This document shows, one piece after another, positions 11 to 57,006 of a DNA stretch of 64,000 nucleotides (position 1 is its first letter; every line of letters starts with the position of its first letter). The notes under the pieces were generated by a model. That model had not been told where the DNA came from. It saw nothing but the letters and a program-made list of their open reading frames with translations, and ran no database searches. Source of the stretch: Escherichia phage vB_EcoM_ESCO45; the sequence record OM386661.1; one strand, 5' to 3'. The translations under genes and the position numbers were made by a program.

Positions 11-7958
<7,948 letters not shown>

Positions 7959-7960
7959 TA

Positions 7961-9109
7961 ATGGCAGTAGGTGAAATTCAAATTAGTGCCTTGCCTCAAG
8001 CAGCCTTACCGATTGACCTTAGTGATATCTTCCATCTTAAACAGGGTATCGAGGATAAGAGATGTACTCTTGAGCAATTACTTGCTCCACACTCAAGCCT
8101 AAGAAATAACCCTCATGGTGTTACTAAGACACAAATTGGTTTAGATAACGTTATTAATGCTCTCCAGTTAGTTGCTGAAAATAACTTATCAGACATTGTT
8201 AGTGTAGCTGAGGCAAGAGCAAATCTACAGATTATGTCTTCAGAAGAGGTTAATAATCTTATTCAACAGCATATTGATGATAAGAGTAACCCACACAACA
8301 CCACTAAGGCACAGGTTGGGTTAAGCAATGTTCAGAACTGGGTGACATCTAACCTTTATAATGAGGATGCAGATAAGTATGCTACAGCAAGAGCAGTAAA
8401 TAACTTGTACAAGGCTGTTCAGGCTTCTTATCCAGTAGGTACTATCCATCTCTCTATGAATCCTGCAAACCCTTCTACATATTTAATTTGTGGAGGTACT
8501 TGGGAGTTAGTTTCAAGAGGAAGAGCACTTGTAGGTTATGATAGTGCTTCTAGGCCAGTTGGTTCAACGTTTGGTTCGCAGACTACTGCACTGACAGTTA
8601 ACAACATTCCTGCACATACTCACTCAGTATACGTCACTGGTGGTGGTCACACACACGGTGCAACGGCATCTATCAGTGCTTTTGACTACGGTACTAAAGG
8701 GACTACAACGTTTGACTATGGAACAAAGACTGTATCTACTTATGACTATGGTAACAGAACAACCAGTGCTGCTGGTTTAACACAAACAACATTCATTAAT
8801 CGTGGTTATGCTGATGGTGGTTGGAGAGGTTTATCAGTTGAGGGGGCAAGCTATGACCCAAGAGCTACGCTGACAACAGCTAACAACCACACTCACTCTG
8901 TAGCAATTGGTGCGCATAATCACACAGTTGAGATTGGTGCTCACAGTCATTCTGTTGCAATTGGCTCCCACAACCACTCAGCAACAGTAACAGTAACCGG
9001 AGCAGGTGAGCATTCGCACTCTGGCACAACTGGCACAACTGGTTCTGGTCAAGCATTTAGCGTTGAACAGCCATCCTTCGTATTGTATGTATGGCAGAGA
9101 ACAGCTTAA
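7961..9109 (+). CDS. tail fibre protein with C-terminal His-x-His repeat tip
   Basis: 382 aa; C-terminal region contains repeated HTHS / AHNHT / AHSHS / SHNHS motifs and FDYGTK repeats, as in metal-binding receptor tips of T4 gp37-type fibres. Confidence 0.6.
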   Translation: MAVGEIQISALPQAALPIDLSDIFHLKQGIEDKRCTLEQLLAPHSSLRNNPHGVTKTQIGLDNVINALQLVAENNLSDIVSVAEARANLQIMSSEEVNNLIQQHIDDKSNPHNTTKAQVGLSNVQNWVTSNLYNEDADKYATARAVNNLYKAVQASYPVGTIHLSMNPANPSTYLICGGTWELVSRGRALVGYDSASRPVGSTFGSQTTALTVNNIPAHTHSVYVTGGGHTHGATASISAFDYGTKGTTTFDYGTKTVSTYDYGNRTTSAAGLTQTTFINRGYADGGWRGLSVEGASYDPRATLTTANNHTHSVAIGAHNHTVEIGAHSHSVAIGSHNHSATVTVTGAGEHSHSGTTGTTGSGQAFSVEQPSFVLYVWQRTA

Positions 9110-9155: not shown

Positions 9156-11510
9156 ATGGCAGATTACAAGTTGAGTGAATTAAACTCAATTGATACAATT
9201 CGTTCAGACGACCTTCTTCATGTCAGAGTTAAAAAGAGACCTGAAATGCTGGGTGATGAAGACCGTCGAATGACCTATCAAGACTTCTTAGCATCTTTTA
9301 AACTTGAAAGATTTGTTCAGATTGCTGGTAGCACTATGACGGGTGACTTAGGGATTGTTAAGTTACTTTATGGTGGTAAGGCAGTATTTGACCCAACAGG
9401 CTCTTCTGAGATTACTATTGGGGATGTTTTAAAGACTTTTAAAATTAACGCAAATGGTCTTAAACTAACTATTGCAGATGCTTCAAGGTCGGCAACTGTT
9501 TATCATACTTTGAATAAACCAAGTCCTAATGAACTTGGGATGAGAACTAATGAAGAAAATGATGCAAGATATGCAAGGCTTGCTGTAACAAACACATTCT
9601 CTGGGACTCAAAATATTCTCTCTGACAATGAAGCCCTTATTTTTAAGAATACCACACAAGGGATGCCACTCTATATTCGTGGTCAAGATGCAGATGGCAC
9701 TAACAGATGGTATCTAGGTAATGATAATAGAAACACAGACAACCTTGTTTTAAAAAACGTTAAATCTGGTGCATACGTAGCGATTTTAGCTAACCTAATC
9801 TCTGTGAATAAATCAATTCAAATCACTGGCCAAGTTCAACCTTCGGACTTCTCTAACTTAGATGCTAGATACTTCACTCAGACAGTAGCTAATCAGAGAT
9901 TTGCACAGTTAACTGCTGATAATACTTTTAGTGGCTCTAACACTTTCAACCAACTAAATGTTTTCAAAAAAGATGGTGAAGTAATTAGGCTACAGAATGC
10001 CAATGCTGCACAACCATTGTACATTAAAGCGATTGATAGCACAGGTGCCAACAGATGGTACATTGGTAATAATAATGGAGGTGATAACGTAGCTCTAGAA
10101 AACTACAAAACTAGTGGCAAAATTACTGTAGGGACAAGTGTTGATATCAATAAAACACTAACTGTAACTGGTCAAGTACAACCTTCCGATTGGGCTAACA
10201 TTGACTCTAGATACATTCCAGCAGCTACTTTGAGCAATCTTGCTAAGCTAAGCGATGTAAACACTTTCAGGTCTGCGCAAGTTATCAACCAGAATGGCTC
10301 ACTGTTACGGCTAAAGAACACCACACAAGATAATGAGCTATACATTGCTGGTCATAATGCTGATAATGCGAGAAGATGGTACATTGGTAGCGGGGAAAGA
10401 GACAACCCAACAAGGCTTATTATCCACAACGACAGAACTTTAACTACGATTTATATGCAAGATGATTTCTTGCTGAATAAAACTGTTAGAATTACTGGTC
10501 AAGTTCAACCATCTGATTGGTCTAACTTAGATGCTAGATACTTCACTCAGGCAGCAGCTAATCAGAGATTCATGGTTGCAGGTTCTACAGGAGAAGCTAC
10601 AGAGCAGAATGCAGATGGTGTGGCATGGAACGCTAAAACAGGCTTATATAATGTAACCTCAACAAATGCTGATTACACAGCACTTGTGTTTCAAATGTAT
10701 CAGGGGGTTAACTCTTCTACTGCCTGTGCGCAATTAAAGTTCCAGTATAAGAACGGTGGGATGTGGTACAGAACATCTGTAGATAGTAAAGGCTTTGAAG
10801 CTAAGTGGTCTAAGATTTACACAGAAGCACAGAAGCCAACACCTTCAGAGCTTGGTGCATACACTAAAGCAGAAACTGACCAGAAAATTGCACAGGCAGT
10901 AAGTGACTCTACAGACCTTAACAAAATCTATCCAGTAGGTATTGTAACGTGGTTTAACAGTAATGTTGACCCTAATACAGCACTGCCTGGTCTAACTTGG
11001 ACGTATCTGAACAACGGTGTTGGTAGAACTATCAGAATTGCAGCAGCAAACGGTTCAGATGTTGCTACAACAGGTGGTTCAGATTCTGTTACGTTAGCAG
11101 TTGGAAACTTACCTTCACACACTCATAGTTTCTCTGCGACTACCTCATCGTTTGACTACGGAACAAAAAACACTAACACGACTGGTGCTCACACCCACAC
11201 TGTAAGTGGTTCTGCTGCATCTGCTGGTAACCACAACCACGCTATCTCATGGATTGGTCAGAACTCTACACACTATTCTGGTGGTGGTGGTGGTAAAATC
11301 GGTACAGGACCGGGTTACACTGATTCTGCTGGTGCTCACACCCACACAATCTCTGGTACTGCTGCATCAAATGGTAACCATGCTCACAGTGTTGGTATTG
11401 GTGCTCACACCCATACAGTAAGCGGTAACACTGGCGGTACAGGTTCTGGTTCAGCATTTAGTGTTACTAACCAGTTCTATAAGTTAATGGCTTGGGTAAG
11501 AACTGCTTAA
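9156..11510 (+). CDS. long tail fibre protein with three internal ~115-aa repeats and His-x-His tip
   Basis: 784 aa; three copies of ITGQVQPSD(W/F)(S/A)N(L/I)D(A/S)RY...; C-terminal HTHS/AHTHT/NHNHA/NHAHS repeats homologous to tip of 7961-9109 product. Confidence 0.6.
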   Translation: MADYKLSELNSIDTIRSDDLLHVRVKKRPEMLGDEDRRMTYQDFLASFKLERFVQIAGSTMTGDLGIVKLLYGGKAVFDPTGSSEITIGDVLKTFKINANGLKLTIADASRSATVYHTLNKPSPNELGMRTNEENDARYARLAVTNTFSGTQNILSDNEALIFKNTTQGMPLYIRGQDADGTNRWYLGNDNRNTDNLVLKNVKSGAYVAILANLISVNKSIQITGQVQPSDFSNLDARYFTQTVANQRFAQLTADNTFSGSNTFNQLNVFKKDGEVIRLQNANAAQPLYIKAIDSTGANRWYIGNNNGGDNVALENYKTSGKITVGTSVDINKTLTVTGQVQPSDWANIDSRYIPAATLSNLAKLSDVNTFRSAQVINQNGSLLRLKNTTQDNELYIAGHNADNARRWYIGSGERDNPTRLIIHNDRTLTTIYMQDDFLLNKTVRITGQVQPSDWSNLDARYFTQAAANQRFMVAGSTGEATEQNADGVAWNAKTGLYNVTSTNADYTALVFQMYQGVNSSTACAQLKFQYKNGGMWYRTSVDSKGFEAKWSKIYTEAQKPTPSELGAYTKAETDQKIAQAVSDSTDLNKIYPVGIVTWFNSNVDPNTALPGLTWTYLNNGVGRTIRIAAANGSDVATTGGSDSVTLAVGNLPSHTHSFSATTSSFDYGTKNTNTTGAHTHTVSGSAASAGNHNHAISWIGQNSTHYSGGGGGKIGTGPGYTDSAGAHTHTISGTAASNGNHAHSVGIGAHTHTVSGNTGGTGSGSAFSVTNQFYKLMAWVRTA

Positions 11511-11515
11511 TCCCT

Positions 11516-11544
11516 TGTTGACTGATTGTTAAGATGGTGTTAAT
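11516..11544 (+). promoter_or_regulatory. sigma70-like promoter
   Basis: TTGACT-N17-TAATAT upstream of 11590 gene. Confidence 0.5.
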
Positions 11545-14511: not shown

Positions 14512-14841
14512 TTAGTCTGCCAACCTTAAATTGAAATTAACACCAAATTTTTCACACACTCCCAACATATACTCAAGGGAAACATTCCCAGTGAGGTGGA
14601 TTATGTTGGATACACGAGCCTGAGAGATACCACAAATTTTAGCAACTTGCTCTTGAGAAAGACCTCTGGATTTAATCTCTCTCTTAAAACGATGTGCAAC
14701 GAAATCTCTCATTTCGTCTACATCCATTGGACAAATATAACTCTCCATTTCAGCCTCTCTATCAGCCTCCCAATCATCTTGTGGGGCATAAGGGTCAAAA
14801 ACCTCATTCATCTTTCTTCTTCCGTTTGCGTGAAGTGTCAA
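14512..14841 (-). CDS. HTH (XRE-like) transcriptional regulator
   Basis: 109 aa; C-terminal LSQEQVAKICGISQARVSNI helix-turn-helix signature. Confidence 0.55.
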   Translation of the reverse strand: MTLHANGRRKMNEVFDPYAPQDDWEADREAEMESYICPMDVDEMRDFVAHRFKREIKSRGLSQEQVAKICGISQARVSNIIHLTGNVSLEYMLGVCEKFGVNFNLRLAD

Positions 14842-51509: not shown

Positions 51510-51598
51510 ATTTGGTTTTTAAAACAAGTAAATTACTAATCAACGGGGAGGGCATGACCTCCCCACTAAATAAAACCCTTAAACTAGGAGATTCAAAA
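51510..51598 (+). promoter_or_regulatory. repeated promoter/stem-loop/RBS cassette, family B copy 1
   Basis: TTGAAT-N17-TAAATT then CAACGGGGAGGGCATGACCTCCCCACTAAATAAAACCCTTAAACTAGGAGATTCAAAAATG; hairpin GGGGAGG/CCTCCCC. Confidence 0.55.
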
Positions 51599-52368: not shown

Positions 52369-52464
52369 TTGTTGACACCGGTTTTTAAAACAAGTAAATT
52401 ACTAATCAACGGGGAGGGCATGACCTCCCCACTAAATAAAACCCTTAAACTAGGAGATTCAAAA
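52369..52464 (+). promoter_or_regulatory. family B cassette copy 2
   Basis: TTGACA-N17-TAAATT + GGGGAGGGCATGACCTCCCC hairpin + RBS. Confidence 0.55.
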
Positions 52465-53467: not shown

Positions 53468-53548
53468 AAAAATCTGTAAATTATCAATCAACGGGGAGGG
53501 TATAACCTCCCCACTAAATAAAACCCTTAAACTAGGAGATTCAAAAAA
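53468..53548 (+). promoter_or_regulatory. family B cassette copy 3
   Basis: TAGACA-N17-TAAATT + GGGGAGGGTATAACCTCCCC hairpin + RBS. Confidence 0.5.
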
Positions 53549-54019: not shown

Positions 54020-54111
54020 CTTGCAATCAGATATCAAACCAAGTAAATTACTAACCAACGGGAGGGATGACCTCCCCACTACATAAAACCCTTAAACTAG
54101 GAGATTCAAAA
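54020..54111 (+). promoter_or_regulatory. family B cassette copy 4
   Basis: TTGCAA-N17-TAAATT + GGGAGGGATGACCTCCCC hairpin + RBS. Confidence 0.5.
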
Positions 54112-54642
54112 ATGAATAAATTCAAAGCTATCAATTATATTCGTTCAAATGCTGTAATGTCTAAACCTGTCAAAGATACATATGAATTTCGCTGCAATGG
54201 TGTACATTTTGCAACTATCACTAAATCAGGAAAAGGTGCTTATTATGTCCATCGTCGTAATGTTGCAACCGTTGTAGTCTCTCATTTCATGCAAGCTGTC
54301 GCAAAATTATTACCGTTATTCTTAGGGATTTACTTAGATGAGTGCAAAAACGTTCGCAACCACGTTAAAAACCTTCTAAACGGTTATAAAATGGCTTACG
54401 AACGTTCAATCAAGTCATTGAACAAATTTTATAAAGCACCTGTAAATACTGTTTCAATGGCTTACAATGTAAATGGTGAGCTGGTTAGTCTCTTTGAAGT
54501 GGAAGAAATTGAACTATATAACTCACGCCCTAAAGGTTACTCTAAAACATTGGGAGAGGGTTTATCTTTCAATATCAAGAATTTAGAAAAAACTTTAAAA
54601 GATATTGAAAAGGATATCGATGAGATAATCAAAAATCTGTAA
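54112..54642 (+). CDS. hypothetical protein
   Basis: 176 aa from ATG 54112 after family-B cassette (track start 54067 lies in the stem-loop). Confidence 0.45.
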   Translation: MNKFKAINYIRSNAVMSKPVKDTYEFRCNGVHFATITKSGKGAYYVHRRNVATVVVSHFMQAVAKLLPLFLGIYLDECKNVRNHVKNLLNGYKMAYERSIKSLNKFYKAPVNTVSMAYNVNGELVSLFEVEEIELYNSRPKGYSKTLGEGLSFNIKNLEKTLKDIEKDIDEIIKNL

Positions 54643-54695
54643 ATTGTCAATCAACGGGGAGGGTATGACCTCCCCACTAAATAAAACCCTATTGA
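54633..54695 (+). promoter_or_regulatory. orphan family B stem-loop copy (no downstream gene)
   Basis: TAAATTGTCAATCAACGGGGAGGGTATGACCTCCCCACTAAATAAAACCCT without following RBS/ATG. Confidence 0.5.
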
Positions 54696-56400
54696 TTCGA
54701 TAGAGTCTATCCCATAGGTGCTTTTTTACGTCTATCAAATCCTTATGCAATCCCTTTCCCTCACCTTTCTAGAATCTCCCCACTGATTCAATAGAGTTTA
54801 TCTCATACCTTAAAAAGCAATAACTCTATAGCTTACCCTATAGCCTTTTATCAAATCAACTTAAATATAAGCCCATAACCCGAGAGGGAAGGGCAACCCT
54901 TTAAACGCCCTATAACGCCCTATAACAGCATTATCAATATAACTTAAGGGATTGCATTACCTCACCTTAAAAAGCACTTTATAAGGCTTTACAGAGCCTT
55001 AAAAGAATCTTTTAAGGGTATAAGCTTATAGGCTGACTAGTATCATGTGAACTGCTAAAAAGTGCTTGATAGTGTCTTAAAAGTATGTTATAGGTGCTAT
55101 AAAGTTACTCAAAAGCTACTCAAAAGTTACTCAAAAGTTACGTAAATGCTAGCCCCCTTAACATTTTCTTAACAATTTCTTAACAAATCCTACATAGTTA
55201 TACTTTCAAGACACTTGTTAACAACTTGTTAGACCCTTGTTAAATCTCTGTTAAGACCACGTAAAAGCTATGTAAAAGCCTTTGGCATAGCCTTAAAAGC
55301 ACTGTAAAGCACTATAAAGAGCTATTCATACATTTGAGGGGCAAATACTAGGGAGAGACTAAAAAGAGCCTATACAGAGCTATAGAGAGCTTTTAAAAGG
55401 TATGTTTAAGGTATCACTAAGAAAGGAAAGGGAACGATAAGAAAAGAGTAGTGACCATGTTAATAGCTTGTTAAAAAGGTTAAATACTTGTTAGGAACTT
55501 GTTAATTATCTAATTGGTATTGTTACCAATCCCTAACAAAATAACCCTTTAAAATTAACTTGTTAGCTCTTGTTAATCATCTGTTAAACCTCTGTAAAGC
55601 CTATGTATCACTTGTTAGAGACTTGTTACCCTCTTGTTAAAACTATTAAGAATCTGTTAAGACCTTTGGAGAGATGTTAAGAGCTTGAGAGAGTTGTTAA
55701 GAGTTTGTTAATGATATTTTAAAATTTTGCAAAGGGGATGTTACAGAGCTGTTAAGGGCTACCAAACAGATATACATCCTAATCAGATATTTTTCAGTTC
55801 CTTCAAAGACCCTAAAAAATGACTTGACAGTCCTATTTTATAAAAAAATTAAAATTCTGAATAATTACCTATACAGTCTTTCTAAAATACAGGCATAAAC
55901 AGGCTTATAAGATACCTTGTTAGTACCGTGTTAGGCCTTGTGAGATAAGGTCTGTAAAGATATTCCTGTTAAGTTTGTTAAAACAGTCTATATAGAGGCT
56001 TAGTAGTGCCTAGTGAACACCTATAGAGAGTGTCATAGCTAACATAGAGATTAAGAGGTGTATAGGAGCTTCTAAGAGGGTATAGAGGGATGGTTAAGGT
56101 GATTGTATAGGTTATTAAGAAGGCTTGTTAGAAGAGTGTTTAGAGGGCTTGTTAGAGGGCTTGTTAGAAGGGTTATACAGAGGGGCTACTAAGACCACTA
56201 GATAGTTACTAAGATACTATATAATACTATATAACTATATAGAGAGTAAGATTAAGAAGGTTGTTAAGAAGGATAGATATTTTATTCACATATGATGGTG
56301 ACCCAGAGGTTGGGACAACCGATAAAATTTTATAAAAATTATAAATTTCGTAAATTTTACTCAATAAAAAGCCCCCAATTAAGGAGGCTCTTAAGATATT
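54643..56400. repeat. 1.75-kb ORF-free repeat-dense region (TTGTTA-core degenerate repeats and short tandem repeats)
   Basis: No ORF of 60 aa or more in any frame; many CTTGTTA(A/G), TGTTAAG copies (55200-55700); tandem CTCAAAAGYTAC x3 (~55096-55135), GGGCTTGTTAGA x3 (~56108-56160), CGCCCTATAA x2 (54907-54925), ACTATATA x3 (~56205-56235). Confidence 0.7.
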
Positions 56401-57006
56401 TTAAATCAGACTTTCTAAAACTGTCTTCAATGATGACTTGGTTGTCTGATAAAAATGAGTAAATCCACCATTGATATCGAATATCTGCATCATAACAGCA
56501 TCTCCCTTGATTGGATACACTCGGATATCATAGTGAAACCCATTAAAGACAGCAGAACCATTACAGAGTGCACTAAAATCATCAATTGAGATATACTCTT
56601 CATGCCCTGTGATTTTTATACAGACACCCTTACTTGGTCTCTTAGGATTGATATCTTCCATCACAGACATACTCTGTCCACCAAGAGACACCATAGTGAC
56701 CACTTTACGGTTCTTCTGTTTAAAGTACATTTTAACTTTCTGTAAAGTGTCTTCATAGAACGGATAAGACTTCTCTACAAAGATTCCTTCAAGTGGCTCT
56801 TTACCATTCCTAACTTCTCTGATATGTCGTACTGAGAAGATAAGCTGCTCTAGTATGTCAAGGCTTTCTTTGGATAATGCTTCTCGAATATCACTCCAGT
56901 CAAGGACTAGGTAGTTACCTTCAACTTCTTTTAAGTTATCTTTTTCCATAGCTATCACACCATTATCGTAAAACTTGGTAGTCTGGTACTGCAAACTTGT
57001 TGTCAT
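56401..57006 (-). CDS. hypothetical protein
   Basis: 201 aa; last gene of minus block before repeat-dense non-coding region. Confidence 0.4.
   Translation of the reverse strand: MTTSLQYQTTKFYDNGVIAMEKDNLKEVEGNYLVLDWSDIREALSKESLDILEQLIFSVRHIREVRNGKEPLEGIFVEKSYPFYEDTLQKVKMYFKQKNRKVVTMVSLGGQSMSVMEDINPKRPSKGVCIKITGHEEYISIDDFSALCNGSAVFNGFHYDIRVYPIKGDAVMMQIFDINGGFTHFYQTTKSSLKTVLESLI

Follow-up and report, generated by a model that had tools for sequence, protein, structure and literature searches.

A 616-bp segment at positions 55150-55765 of the genome stretch of Escherichia phage vB_EcoM_ESCO45 analyzed here (sequence record OM386661.1) is very probably the direct terminal repeat (DTR) of a Felixounavirus-type phage (Ounavirinae), which the homology data suggest was collapsed to a single copy by circular assembly. 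The whole stretch of 64,000 nucleotides is referred to as the window and, unless stated otherwise, coordinates are positions within it. The segment is located in a repeat-dense region without genes (54643-56400), for which an earlier inspection of the letters alone, hereafter the sequence-only reading, had listed, among several candidates, a packaging region or a genome end that a circular assembly had closed up. That proposal is strongly supported by homology to the mapped termini of related phages, and a DTR is already documented for this phage group.

The boundaries of the repeat (TAGCCCCCTTAACA... on the left and ...GGGCTACCAA|ACAGATATACA on the right) were assigned by comparison with relatives in which the genome ends are known. 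The GenBank record of Salmonella phage UAB_69 (OL656108) carries a 618-bp repeat_region feature labeled "DTR" within the homologous gap, and this repeat is reported in PMC11350853. Its first base corresponds to position 55150 (acgtaaatgc|TAGCCCCCTTAACA) and its last base to position 55765 (GGGCTACCAA|acagatataca). In the record of Erwinia phage vB_EamM-M7, the first and last 444 bp agree at 100% identity; here, the repeat starts T|TAGCCACTTTTACA and stops GGCCACTAA|GTAGATATACA, and both junctions are homologous to the two edges in the window. In 15 further relatives from four Ounavirinae lineages, both boundary motifs were found 574-662 bp apart, with a spacing of 443 bp in M7. Near-identical forms of TAGCCCCCTTAACATTTTCTTAACAA at the left edge and of GGGCTACCAA|(A/G)CAGATATACA at the right edge occur in UAB_69, SUSP2, Moogle, VpaE1, and ESCO56, and both edges are recognizable in M7. 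Just outside the boundary, on the side of the right-end arm, the motif ..AAAGTTACGTAAA(T/A)GC is conserved in five relatives. The independent GenBank records of BPS15Q2, REP10, mistaenkt, and EcSzw_1 open or close within ∼50 bp of one boundary.

In phage UAB_Phi87, a 608-bp DTR was determined by run-off sequencing together with Bal31 digestion (PMC4837284). From the SpeI sites around the homologous region of this genome, fragments of 2749 and 4437 bp are expected at the ends, in approximate agreement with the Bal31-sensitive SpeI fragments of 2819 and 4322 bp that were reported (PMC4837284). The same paper placed the Felix O1-type TerL in a DTR cluster (PMC4837284), and Felixounavirus isolates were classified by PhageTerm as having linear genomes of the DTR type (PMC11737134). 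Short-read assemblers are known to collapse DTRs and to place them in the middle of a contig (PMC10438801).

An alternative position for the DTR, within the tRNA cluster, was suggested by the identical 542-bp ends of the UAB_Phi87 record (JN225449, 1-542 and 87062-87603). This placement was rejected because the SpeI fragments and the identical ends of M7 agree with the UAB_69 feature in pointing to the noncoding region. The 542-bp overlap appears to be an assembly artifact: 87,603 - 542 + 608 = 87,669 bp, which is the published genome size.

The region is widely distributed among related phages. A total of 255-282 phage records matched it, almost all of them from Felixounavirus or other Ounavirinae, with hosts that include Escherichia, Salmonella, Shigella, Citrobacter, and Erwinia. 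Coverage of the region reached 80% or more in 206 records, mostly at 80-90% identity, and the closest match was ESCO56 at ∼93%. The genomic position is shared with the relatives, in which the gap is likewise free of open reading frames (ORFs) and is flanked by gene families of the same kind and orientation. Whether the repeats or only the position would prove to be conserved had been left for such a comparison to decide, and conservation is seen both for the position and for the TGTTA cores of the DTR. In most homologous records, the region is unannotated or bears a few tiny hypothetical ORFs.

In the window, the region is bounded by a plus-strand ORF (54067-54642) and a minus-strand ORF (56401-57006). 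It contains no ORF of at least 60 amino acids, as the sequence-only reading had stated; the largest ORFs that touch it encode 51, 31, 45, and 56 amino acids. Its G+C content is 0.32-0.35, compared with ∼0.39 elsewhere in the window. The DTR is flanked by two unique noncoding arms, one of which (54643-55149) would lie inside the right genome end and the other (55766-56400) inside the left genome end. The convergence of two transcription blocks on this region, also described in the sequence-only reading, holds for the assembled or concatemeric form of the genome but not for the packaged linear form, which has one block at each end; it is the circularly closed assembly that makes them converge.

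The DTR has a distinctive internal structure, consisting of TGTTA cores arranged at a spacing of about one helical turn. Every repeat that the sequence-only reading had named was found again in 54643-56400, including a plus-strand run of four TTGTTA copies (55213-55254), in which the TGTTA cores are exactly 11 bp apart, with conserved cores and variable spacers. When both strands are counted, TGTTA occurs 37 times in the region, compared with 6.0±2.4 times (maximum 15) in 1000 dinucleotide shuffles; 30 copies are on the plus strand and 7 on the minus strand, and 26 fall in the DTR. The arrangement TGTTA-N6-TGTTA occurs 13 times, compared with 0.01 in shuffles and 3 in the remaining 62 kb. At a lag of 11, the base autocorrelation was 0.39 across the region and 0.46 within 55150-55765, whereas 30 control windows gave 0.267±0.011 (maximum 0.294). 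A value of 0.36 was obtained at this lag for the right-end arm, and values of 0.35-0.38 were obtained at lags 11-12 for the left-end arm. Given that echoes appear at lags of ∼21-22, 31-32, and 42, the mean period is close to one helical turn. Thus, the entire 1.76 kb is phased at about this interval.

Within the DTR, 21 TGTTA cores are on the plus strand and 5 on the minus strand, ∼26 in total. The left edge (55150-55186) starts with TAGCCCCC, followed by three TTAACA elements, which represent minus-strand TGTTA at 11-bp spacing. No other block of the DTR is conserved as strongly as this one (∼0.9-1.0 per column), which shows one or two differences in five relatives and is recognizable in M7. 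The central part (55260-55455) is devoid of TGTTA; it contains 10-bp phased units of the TGTAA/TATAA/TATAG type (arrays at 55296-55319 and 55354-55390) and a purine-rich tract (55420-55452). A further 17 plus-strand cores follow at 55457-55755, mostly at 11-bp spacing with some steps of 20-21 bp. This part includes a 20-bp unit present in 2.7 copies (55655-55707, detected by TRF), which carries a triple of cores spaced by 20 bp. The same triple is present in M7, at positions 322/342/362 of its DTR, as compared with 506/526/546 in the DTR of the window. The right edge and the surroundings of the putative cut site (55716-55776; ATTTTAAAATTTTGCAAAGG...GGGCTACCAA|ACAGATATACA) are near-invariant in relatives. 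In blastn comparisons with Erwinia phages, only ∼55650-55776 of the region still aligns.

When 15 distinct DTRs were aligned to assess the array, conservation was 92% in the cores, compared with 80% in the 6-nucleotide spacers and 80% at the other DTR positions (Mann-Whitney p ∼5e-8, a value to be read with caution because the sequences are related). Each DTR of the Felixounavirus, Moogle, or SUSP2 type carries 18-23 forward and 3-6 reverse cores, and that of M7 carries 13 plus-strand and 7 minus-strand cores. In addition to the 20-bp-spaced triple near its right end, the M7 repeat shares a cluster of reverse-oriented cores at the left. Given that the cores are more conserved than the spacers and are kept in M7 despite the loss of alignment elsewhere, the TGTTA array appears to be under selection. 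The published accounts of the UAB_Phi87 and UAB_69 DTRs that were found give length and position only. As far as found, the internal TGTTA composition (∼26 cores sharing one face of the helix, with inverted orientation at the left edge, a plan kept across four genera) is undescribed in the literature.

Short arrays of this kind are not confined to these phages. A scan of IMG/VR for four TGTTA copies at 11-bp spacing showed that the array is not unique, as >100 unrelated contigs contain 11-bp tandem arrays with this core that are short and nearly exact; TGTTA repeats at 11-bp intervals are widespread among unrelated phages whose hosts differ widely in G+C content. In the same scan, ∼20 degenerate TGTTA copies within 1 kb were observed only at loci of the Felix O1 type.

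The role of the DTR would most likely be in terminase recognition and cutting, duplication of the repeat, and formation of concatemers. In virion DNA, the repeat would be present at both ends, with the plus-strand and minus-strand blocks at opposite ends, reading outward and each closed by a hairpin. In a scheme of the established T7 type, replication would yield concatemers joined head to tail, in which each junction holds a single DTR. The conserved edges (TAGCCCCC... and ...GGGCTACCAA|ACAGATATACA) would be recognized and cut or nicked by terminase, and strand-displacement synthesis would then duplicate the repeat to leave one copy at each end of the packaged genome. After injection, the end repeats would recombine or anneal so that concatemers are rebuilt. 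The ∼26 TGTTA contacts on one face of the helix would be where a sequence-specific protein loads in order to mark the junction or bring the ends into synapsis. A small-terminase-like or end-binding phage protein is the candidate binder, possibly helped by a host factor. A binding-site array had also been among the suggestions of the sequence-only reading; the phased cores conserved above their spacers agree with it and are probably the same feature as the terminus, whereas binding itself is something we infer.

Among known systems, the DTRs of Felixounavirus and Kolesnikvirus phages (608 bp in UAB_Phi87, 618 bp in UAB_69, and 444 bp in M7) are the closest match, with homologous sequence, edges, and position and a similar length and TGTTA content. 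They differ in that the ESCO45 DTR is present as one internal copy in a circularly permuted assembly. An ORF-free stretch between two gene modules also proved to be a collapsed DTR in roseophage SIO1 (PMC6775973), which differs in belonging to an unrelated phage group and in having a DTR of 159-173 bp for which no phased motif array is described. For repeats of the T7 type, site-specific cutting by terminase and synthesis of the second copy have been described (PMC10438801). The terminal repeats of Autographiviridae are similarly short, exact, and ORF-free, with one copy per concatemer junction. As Dunn and Studier reportedly described in 1983, the T7 repeat is flanked by short imperfect repeat arrays, SRL and SRR, and these flanks resemble the 10-12-bp arrays on either side of the ESCO45 DTR. 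The differences from T7 are that the ESCO45 DTR is four times longer (616 versus 160 bp) and is itself made of a phased 5-bp core, that ESCO45 is a myovirus with an unrelated terminase whose small subunit is unrecognized, and that its terminal genes point outward at both ends, whereas all T7 genes run from left to right.

The working model for the TGTTA array is provided by the packaging sites of lambda, P1, and SPP1. In these phages, short repeated elements (the R sites of lambda cosB, the P1 pac hexamers, and the SPP1 pacL and pacR boxes) flank the terminase cut site and offer binding sites to the small terminase or to PacA, often with DNA bending and host factors. These sites have 3-7 elements, a known binder, and cos or headful ends, whereas ESCO45 has ∼26 elements and would have exact DTR ends.

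Several points weigh against the assignment and the proposed role. For ESCO45 itself, the DTR is assigned by homology. The UAB_Phi87 fragment sizes deviate by 70-115 bp from prediction, and the published length of 608 bp differs from the 618-bp spacing of the motifs; because of these mismatches, the boundaries in UAB_Phi87 may be shifted by some tens of bases. That the repeats act in packaging is our inference. Felix O1-type phages have been reported with TerL only, and the small terminase is unrecognized (PMC3185647). To the 66-aa gene located upstream of TerL in Bas63, no known function could be assigned. When 18 ORFs of the window were compared with Pfam or PHROGs for a protein that might read TGTTA, only one DNA-binding domain was found, a Cro/C1-type helix-turn-helix. 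It belongs to a 109-aa protein encoded on the minus strand at 14512-14841 (Pfam HTH_3, E = 3e-9; PHROG "transcriptional regulator"), within a block for nucleotide metabolism and replication, and a domain of this type is not expected to read direct repeats. The eight proteins encoded by the flanking genes have no known domain. The window begins inside the tape-measure gene, and TerL falls outside it. Simple consensus searches for DnaA, IHF, PhoP, PmrA, CpxR, PhoB, and OmpR sites yielded no arrays, and the literature on the Bas63 knockout screen contains nothing on this gap.

As an alternative, a replication origin formed by the region or just by its DTR is unlikely, and such a role could coexist with that of a terminus. 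In this interpretation, the TGTTA repeats would act as iterons for an initiator of the phage, beside AT-rich unwinding elements. The phased direct repeats do form an array of the iteron type within AT-rich, ORF-free DNA; AT-rich blocks are present at 55710-55735, 55835-55868, and 56326-56360; and iteron-type short, near-exact 11-bp TGTTA arrays recur in the >100 unrelated viral contigs mentioned above. The cumulative GC skew also peaks in 54643-56400, but this turn follows the switch of the gene strand. No initiator gene is adjacent, and the flanking genes are all of unassigned function. DnaA-box-like matches number 1 in the region and 10 in the window, which is not a clear enrichment, and the genes for polymerase and primase/helicase are 20-30 kb distant. 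Nothing ties replication starts in Ounavirinae to genome ends, and the Felix O1 literature contains nothing on an origin or on the repeat region.

An improbable lead is that the TGTTA array consists of binding sites for the phosphorylated form of the host response regulator ArcA (ArcA-P), such that the ends or junctions would respond to the anaerobic or redox state of the host, or that the array, present in hundreds of copies during replication, would absorb ArcA-P and relieve the repression of respiratory genes. ArcA-P sites comprise 10-bp direct repeats with a TGTTA core and an 11-bp center-to-center distance, in 2-5 elements (PMC3798270; PMC4173790). The phage array shares the core, the direct orientation, the multi-element runs, and, in part, the 11-bp spacing, and the region also contains the TGTAA variants that ArcA-P tolerates (PMC4173790). 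An 18-bp matrix was built from 115 E. coli boxes derived from chromatin immunoprecipitation (published Table S3), for which the training scores are 9.6-21.5 bits with a mean of 15.7. With this matrix, 9 boxes in the 1.76 kb scored 15 bits or more, compared with 2 in the other 62 kb, and 21 boxes scored at least 10 bits. Two elements of the left edge (55150-55186) scored 22.5 and 22.7 bits and thus exceeded the best training site (21.5 bits). High-scoring boxes were observed in 17 of the 17 DTRs examined, including that of an Erwinia phage.

The resemblance is nevertheless incomplete. In the phage element, whose signature is TTGTTAAGA, TGTTAA is followed by G in 46% of cases compared with 8% in ArcA sites, and the core is preceded by C in 22% compared with 3%; the phage spacers are also richer in G+C. 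While 13 pairs are spaced by exactly 11 bp, skipped steps are of 20-21 bp rather than 22 bp, and one extra base is reported not to be tolerated by ArcA-P (PMC4173790). The DTR has 26 elements in 616 bp, compared with at most 5 per host site. No promoter overlaps the array, and no promoter or gene is positioned for regulation. In the literature searched, ArcA is linked neither to phages of the Felix O1 type nor to terminal repeats. Given that >100 unrelated IMG/VR contigs carry 11-bp TGTTA arrays, less weight is given to ArcA, and the match of the core is perhaps a coincidence. Slightly less probable still is a more specific proposal, that the DTR evolved into an array of ∼26 ArcA-P sites and that, in the anaerobic gut, ArcA-P coats the genome ends and concatemer junctions, so that packaging and replication depend on the redox state of the host or the array acts as a "sponge" that titrates ArcA-P. 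If this were so, titration of ArcA-P by hundreds of replicating copies would derepress host respiratory and tricarboxylic acid cycle genes and thereby fuel phage production, and a phage terminal repeat would carry a DNA sponge for a host transcription factor.

It is scarcely credible that the region lacks a function of its own, whether as degenerated intergenic sequence or as a zone of terminators where two operons converge. Both gene blocks are indeed closed by hairpins, and almost no GenBank record annotates anything in the region. Against this, a region of 1.6-1.8 kb is kept in >200 genomes, its edges are near-invariant, its motif cores are conserved above the spacers across genera, and it coincides with mapped termini. 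The remark in the sequence-only reading that this does not look like a simple terminator zone agrees with the pattern of conservation and the match to mapped termini.

Equally hard to credit is a structured noncoding RNA or small-RNA locus transcribed from the gap, as had also been proposed; the slightly better-than-shuffled folding of the DTR minus strand (z = -2.4) is accounted for by the inverted TAACA/TGTTA arrays, the plus strand gave z = +0.55 with no convincing structure on either strand, the best hit of an Rfam covariance search at a permissive threshold was IMES-5 at 25.6 bits compared with the 96.1 bits required, ARAGORN detected no tRNA or tmRNA in the region, σ70 promoter-like sites are not enriched in it (12 versus 13.8±3.3), and conservation tracks the 11-bp repeat at the DNA level rather than paired columns.

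Hairpins close the two gene blocks. The stem-loop at the left edge of the region, regarded in the sequence-only reading as an orphan copy, is not one but the fourth of four hairpins of identical type, AACGGGGAGG-N6-CCTCCCCA, located at 51542-51565, 52408-52431, 53490-53513, and 54653-54676, each just 3' of a plus-strand gene. Four copies with the exact pattern were found, compared with 0 expected. The last of them (54653-54676, plus strand), which follows the final plus-strand gene, has a folding energy of -16.3 kcal/mol (z = -2.2) and is likely a terminator or RNA-end hairpin. Given that the four hairpins are not followed by a T-run, they may mark RNA ends or processing sites instead of acting as classical terminators. 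The minus-strand block is closed by an intrinsic terminator on the minus strand at 56372-56386, with five pairs and a T-run (-15.2 kcal/mol, z = -3.3); besides this one, a terminator scan of the region showed no enrichment.

Further repeats are located in the two arms. An 11-bp unit, AAAGTTACTCA, is present in 3.7 copies at 55101-55141, adjoining the DTR boundary; AACGCCCTAT is present in 2.3 copies at 54904-54926; and a 30-nucleotide direct repeat occurs at 54687-54716 and 54778-54807. The left-end arm contains a 12-bp GGCTTGTTAGA-type unit in 4.5 copies with a 76% match (56118-56171), ∼3 copies of ATACTATAT (56214-56241), TGTTA pairs (55918-55934), and, within 55766-56400, two copies of CAGATAT. 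The M7 DTR has flanks (locus positions ∼1980-2550 and 445-700) with phased short repeats of its own, namely CTTCTAA(A/G) runs on one side and three copies of CTTCTCAG on the other. A DTR flanked by 10-12-bp arrays is thus an architecture shared by M7 and ESCO45, while the flank units differ.

In relatives such as UAB_69 (UAB69_gp026) and skuden (skuden_85/86), one or two extra small genes of ∼83-88 amino acids lie between the last plus-strand gene and the noncoding arm, at locus positions 2547-2865 in UAB_69 and 3373-3950 in skuden. Given that these genes are missing from the ESCO45 window, the arm that adjoins the right genome end appears, from this comparison of gene content, to be a site of gene gain or loss. 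Tiny ORFs of 25-49 amino acids have been annotated inside or across the DTR of UAB_69 (locus 3748-3825 and 3894-4043) and UAB_Phi87 (locus 8018-8167 and 8236-8313), and up to five "hypothetical proteins" are annotated in the homologous region of other records. Small ORFs called inside the repeat are probably spurious, as they sit in phased-repeat DNA.

Two further observations concern the rest of the window. The sole other high-scoring TGTTA run, TTGTTGACTGATTGTTAAGATGGTGTTAA, is located at 11515-11543, just after a tail-fiber ORF (stop at 11510), and overlaps a σ70-like TTGACT-17-TAATAT sequence. If the DTR array is recognized by a single protein, this promoter-like site might be a further target of it. 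In addition, GATC is absent from 1-64000, compared with 182±13 occurrences in dinucleotide shuffles and a Markov estimate of ∼223. The 6-bp palindromes CTGCAG, ATGCAT, CAGCTG, CCATGG, GAATTC, GGTACC, and GAGCTC are also absent from the window, with 6-23 of each expected. The missing sites look like strong avoidance of restriction or Dam/MutH-type targets.

In terms of annotation, the consequence of the proposed assignment is that the ESCO45 genome would be linear, with ends at ∼55150 and 55765, rather than circular. The resemblance of the array to ArcA sites is, as far as found, undescribed, and it offers a cheaply testable link to a host regulator. The internal repeat architecture of the DTR would, in turn, provide a handle on how the packaging site is marked in a myovirus that has no recognized small terminase.

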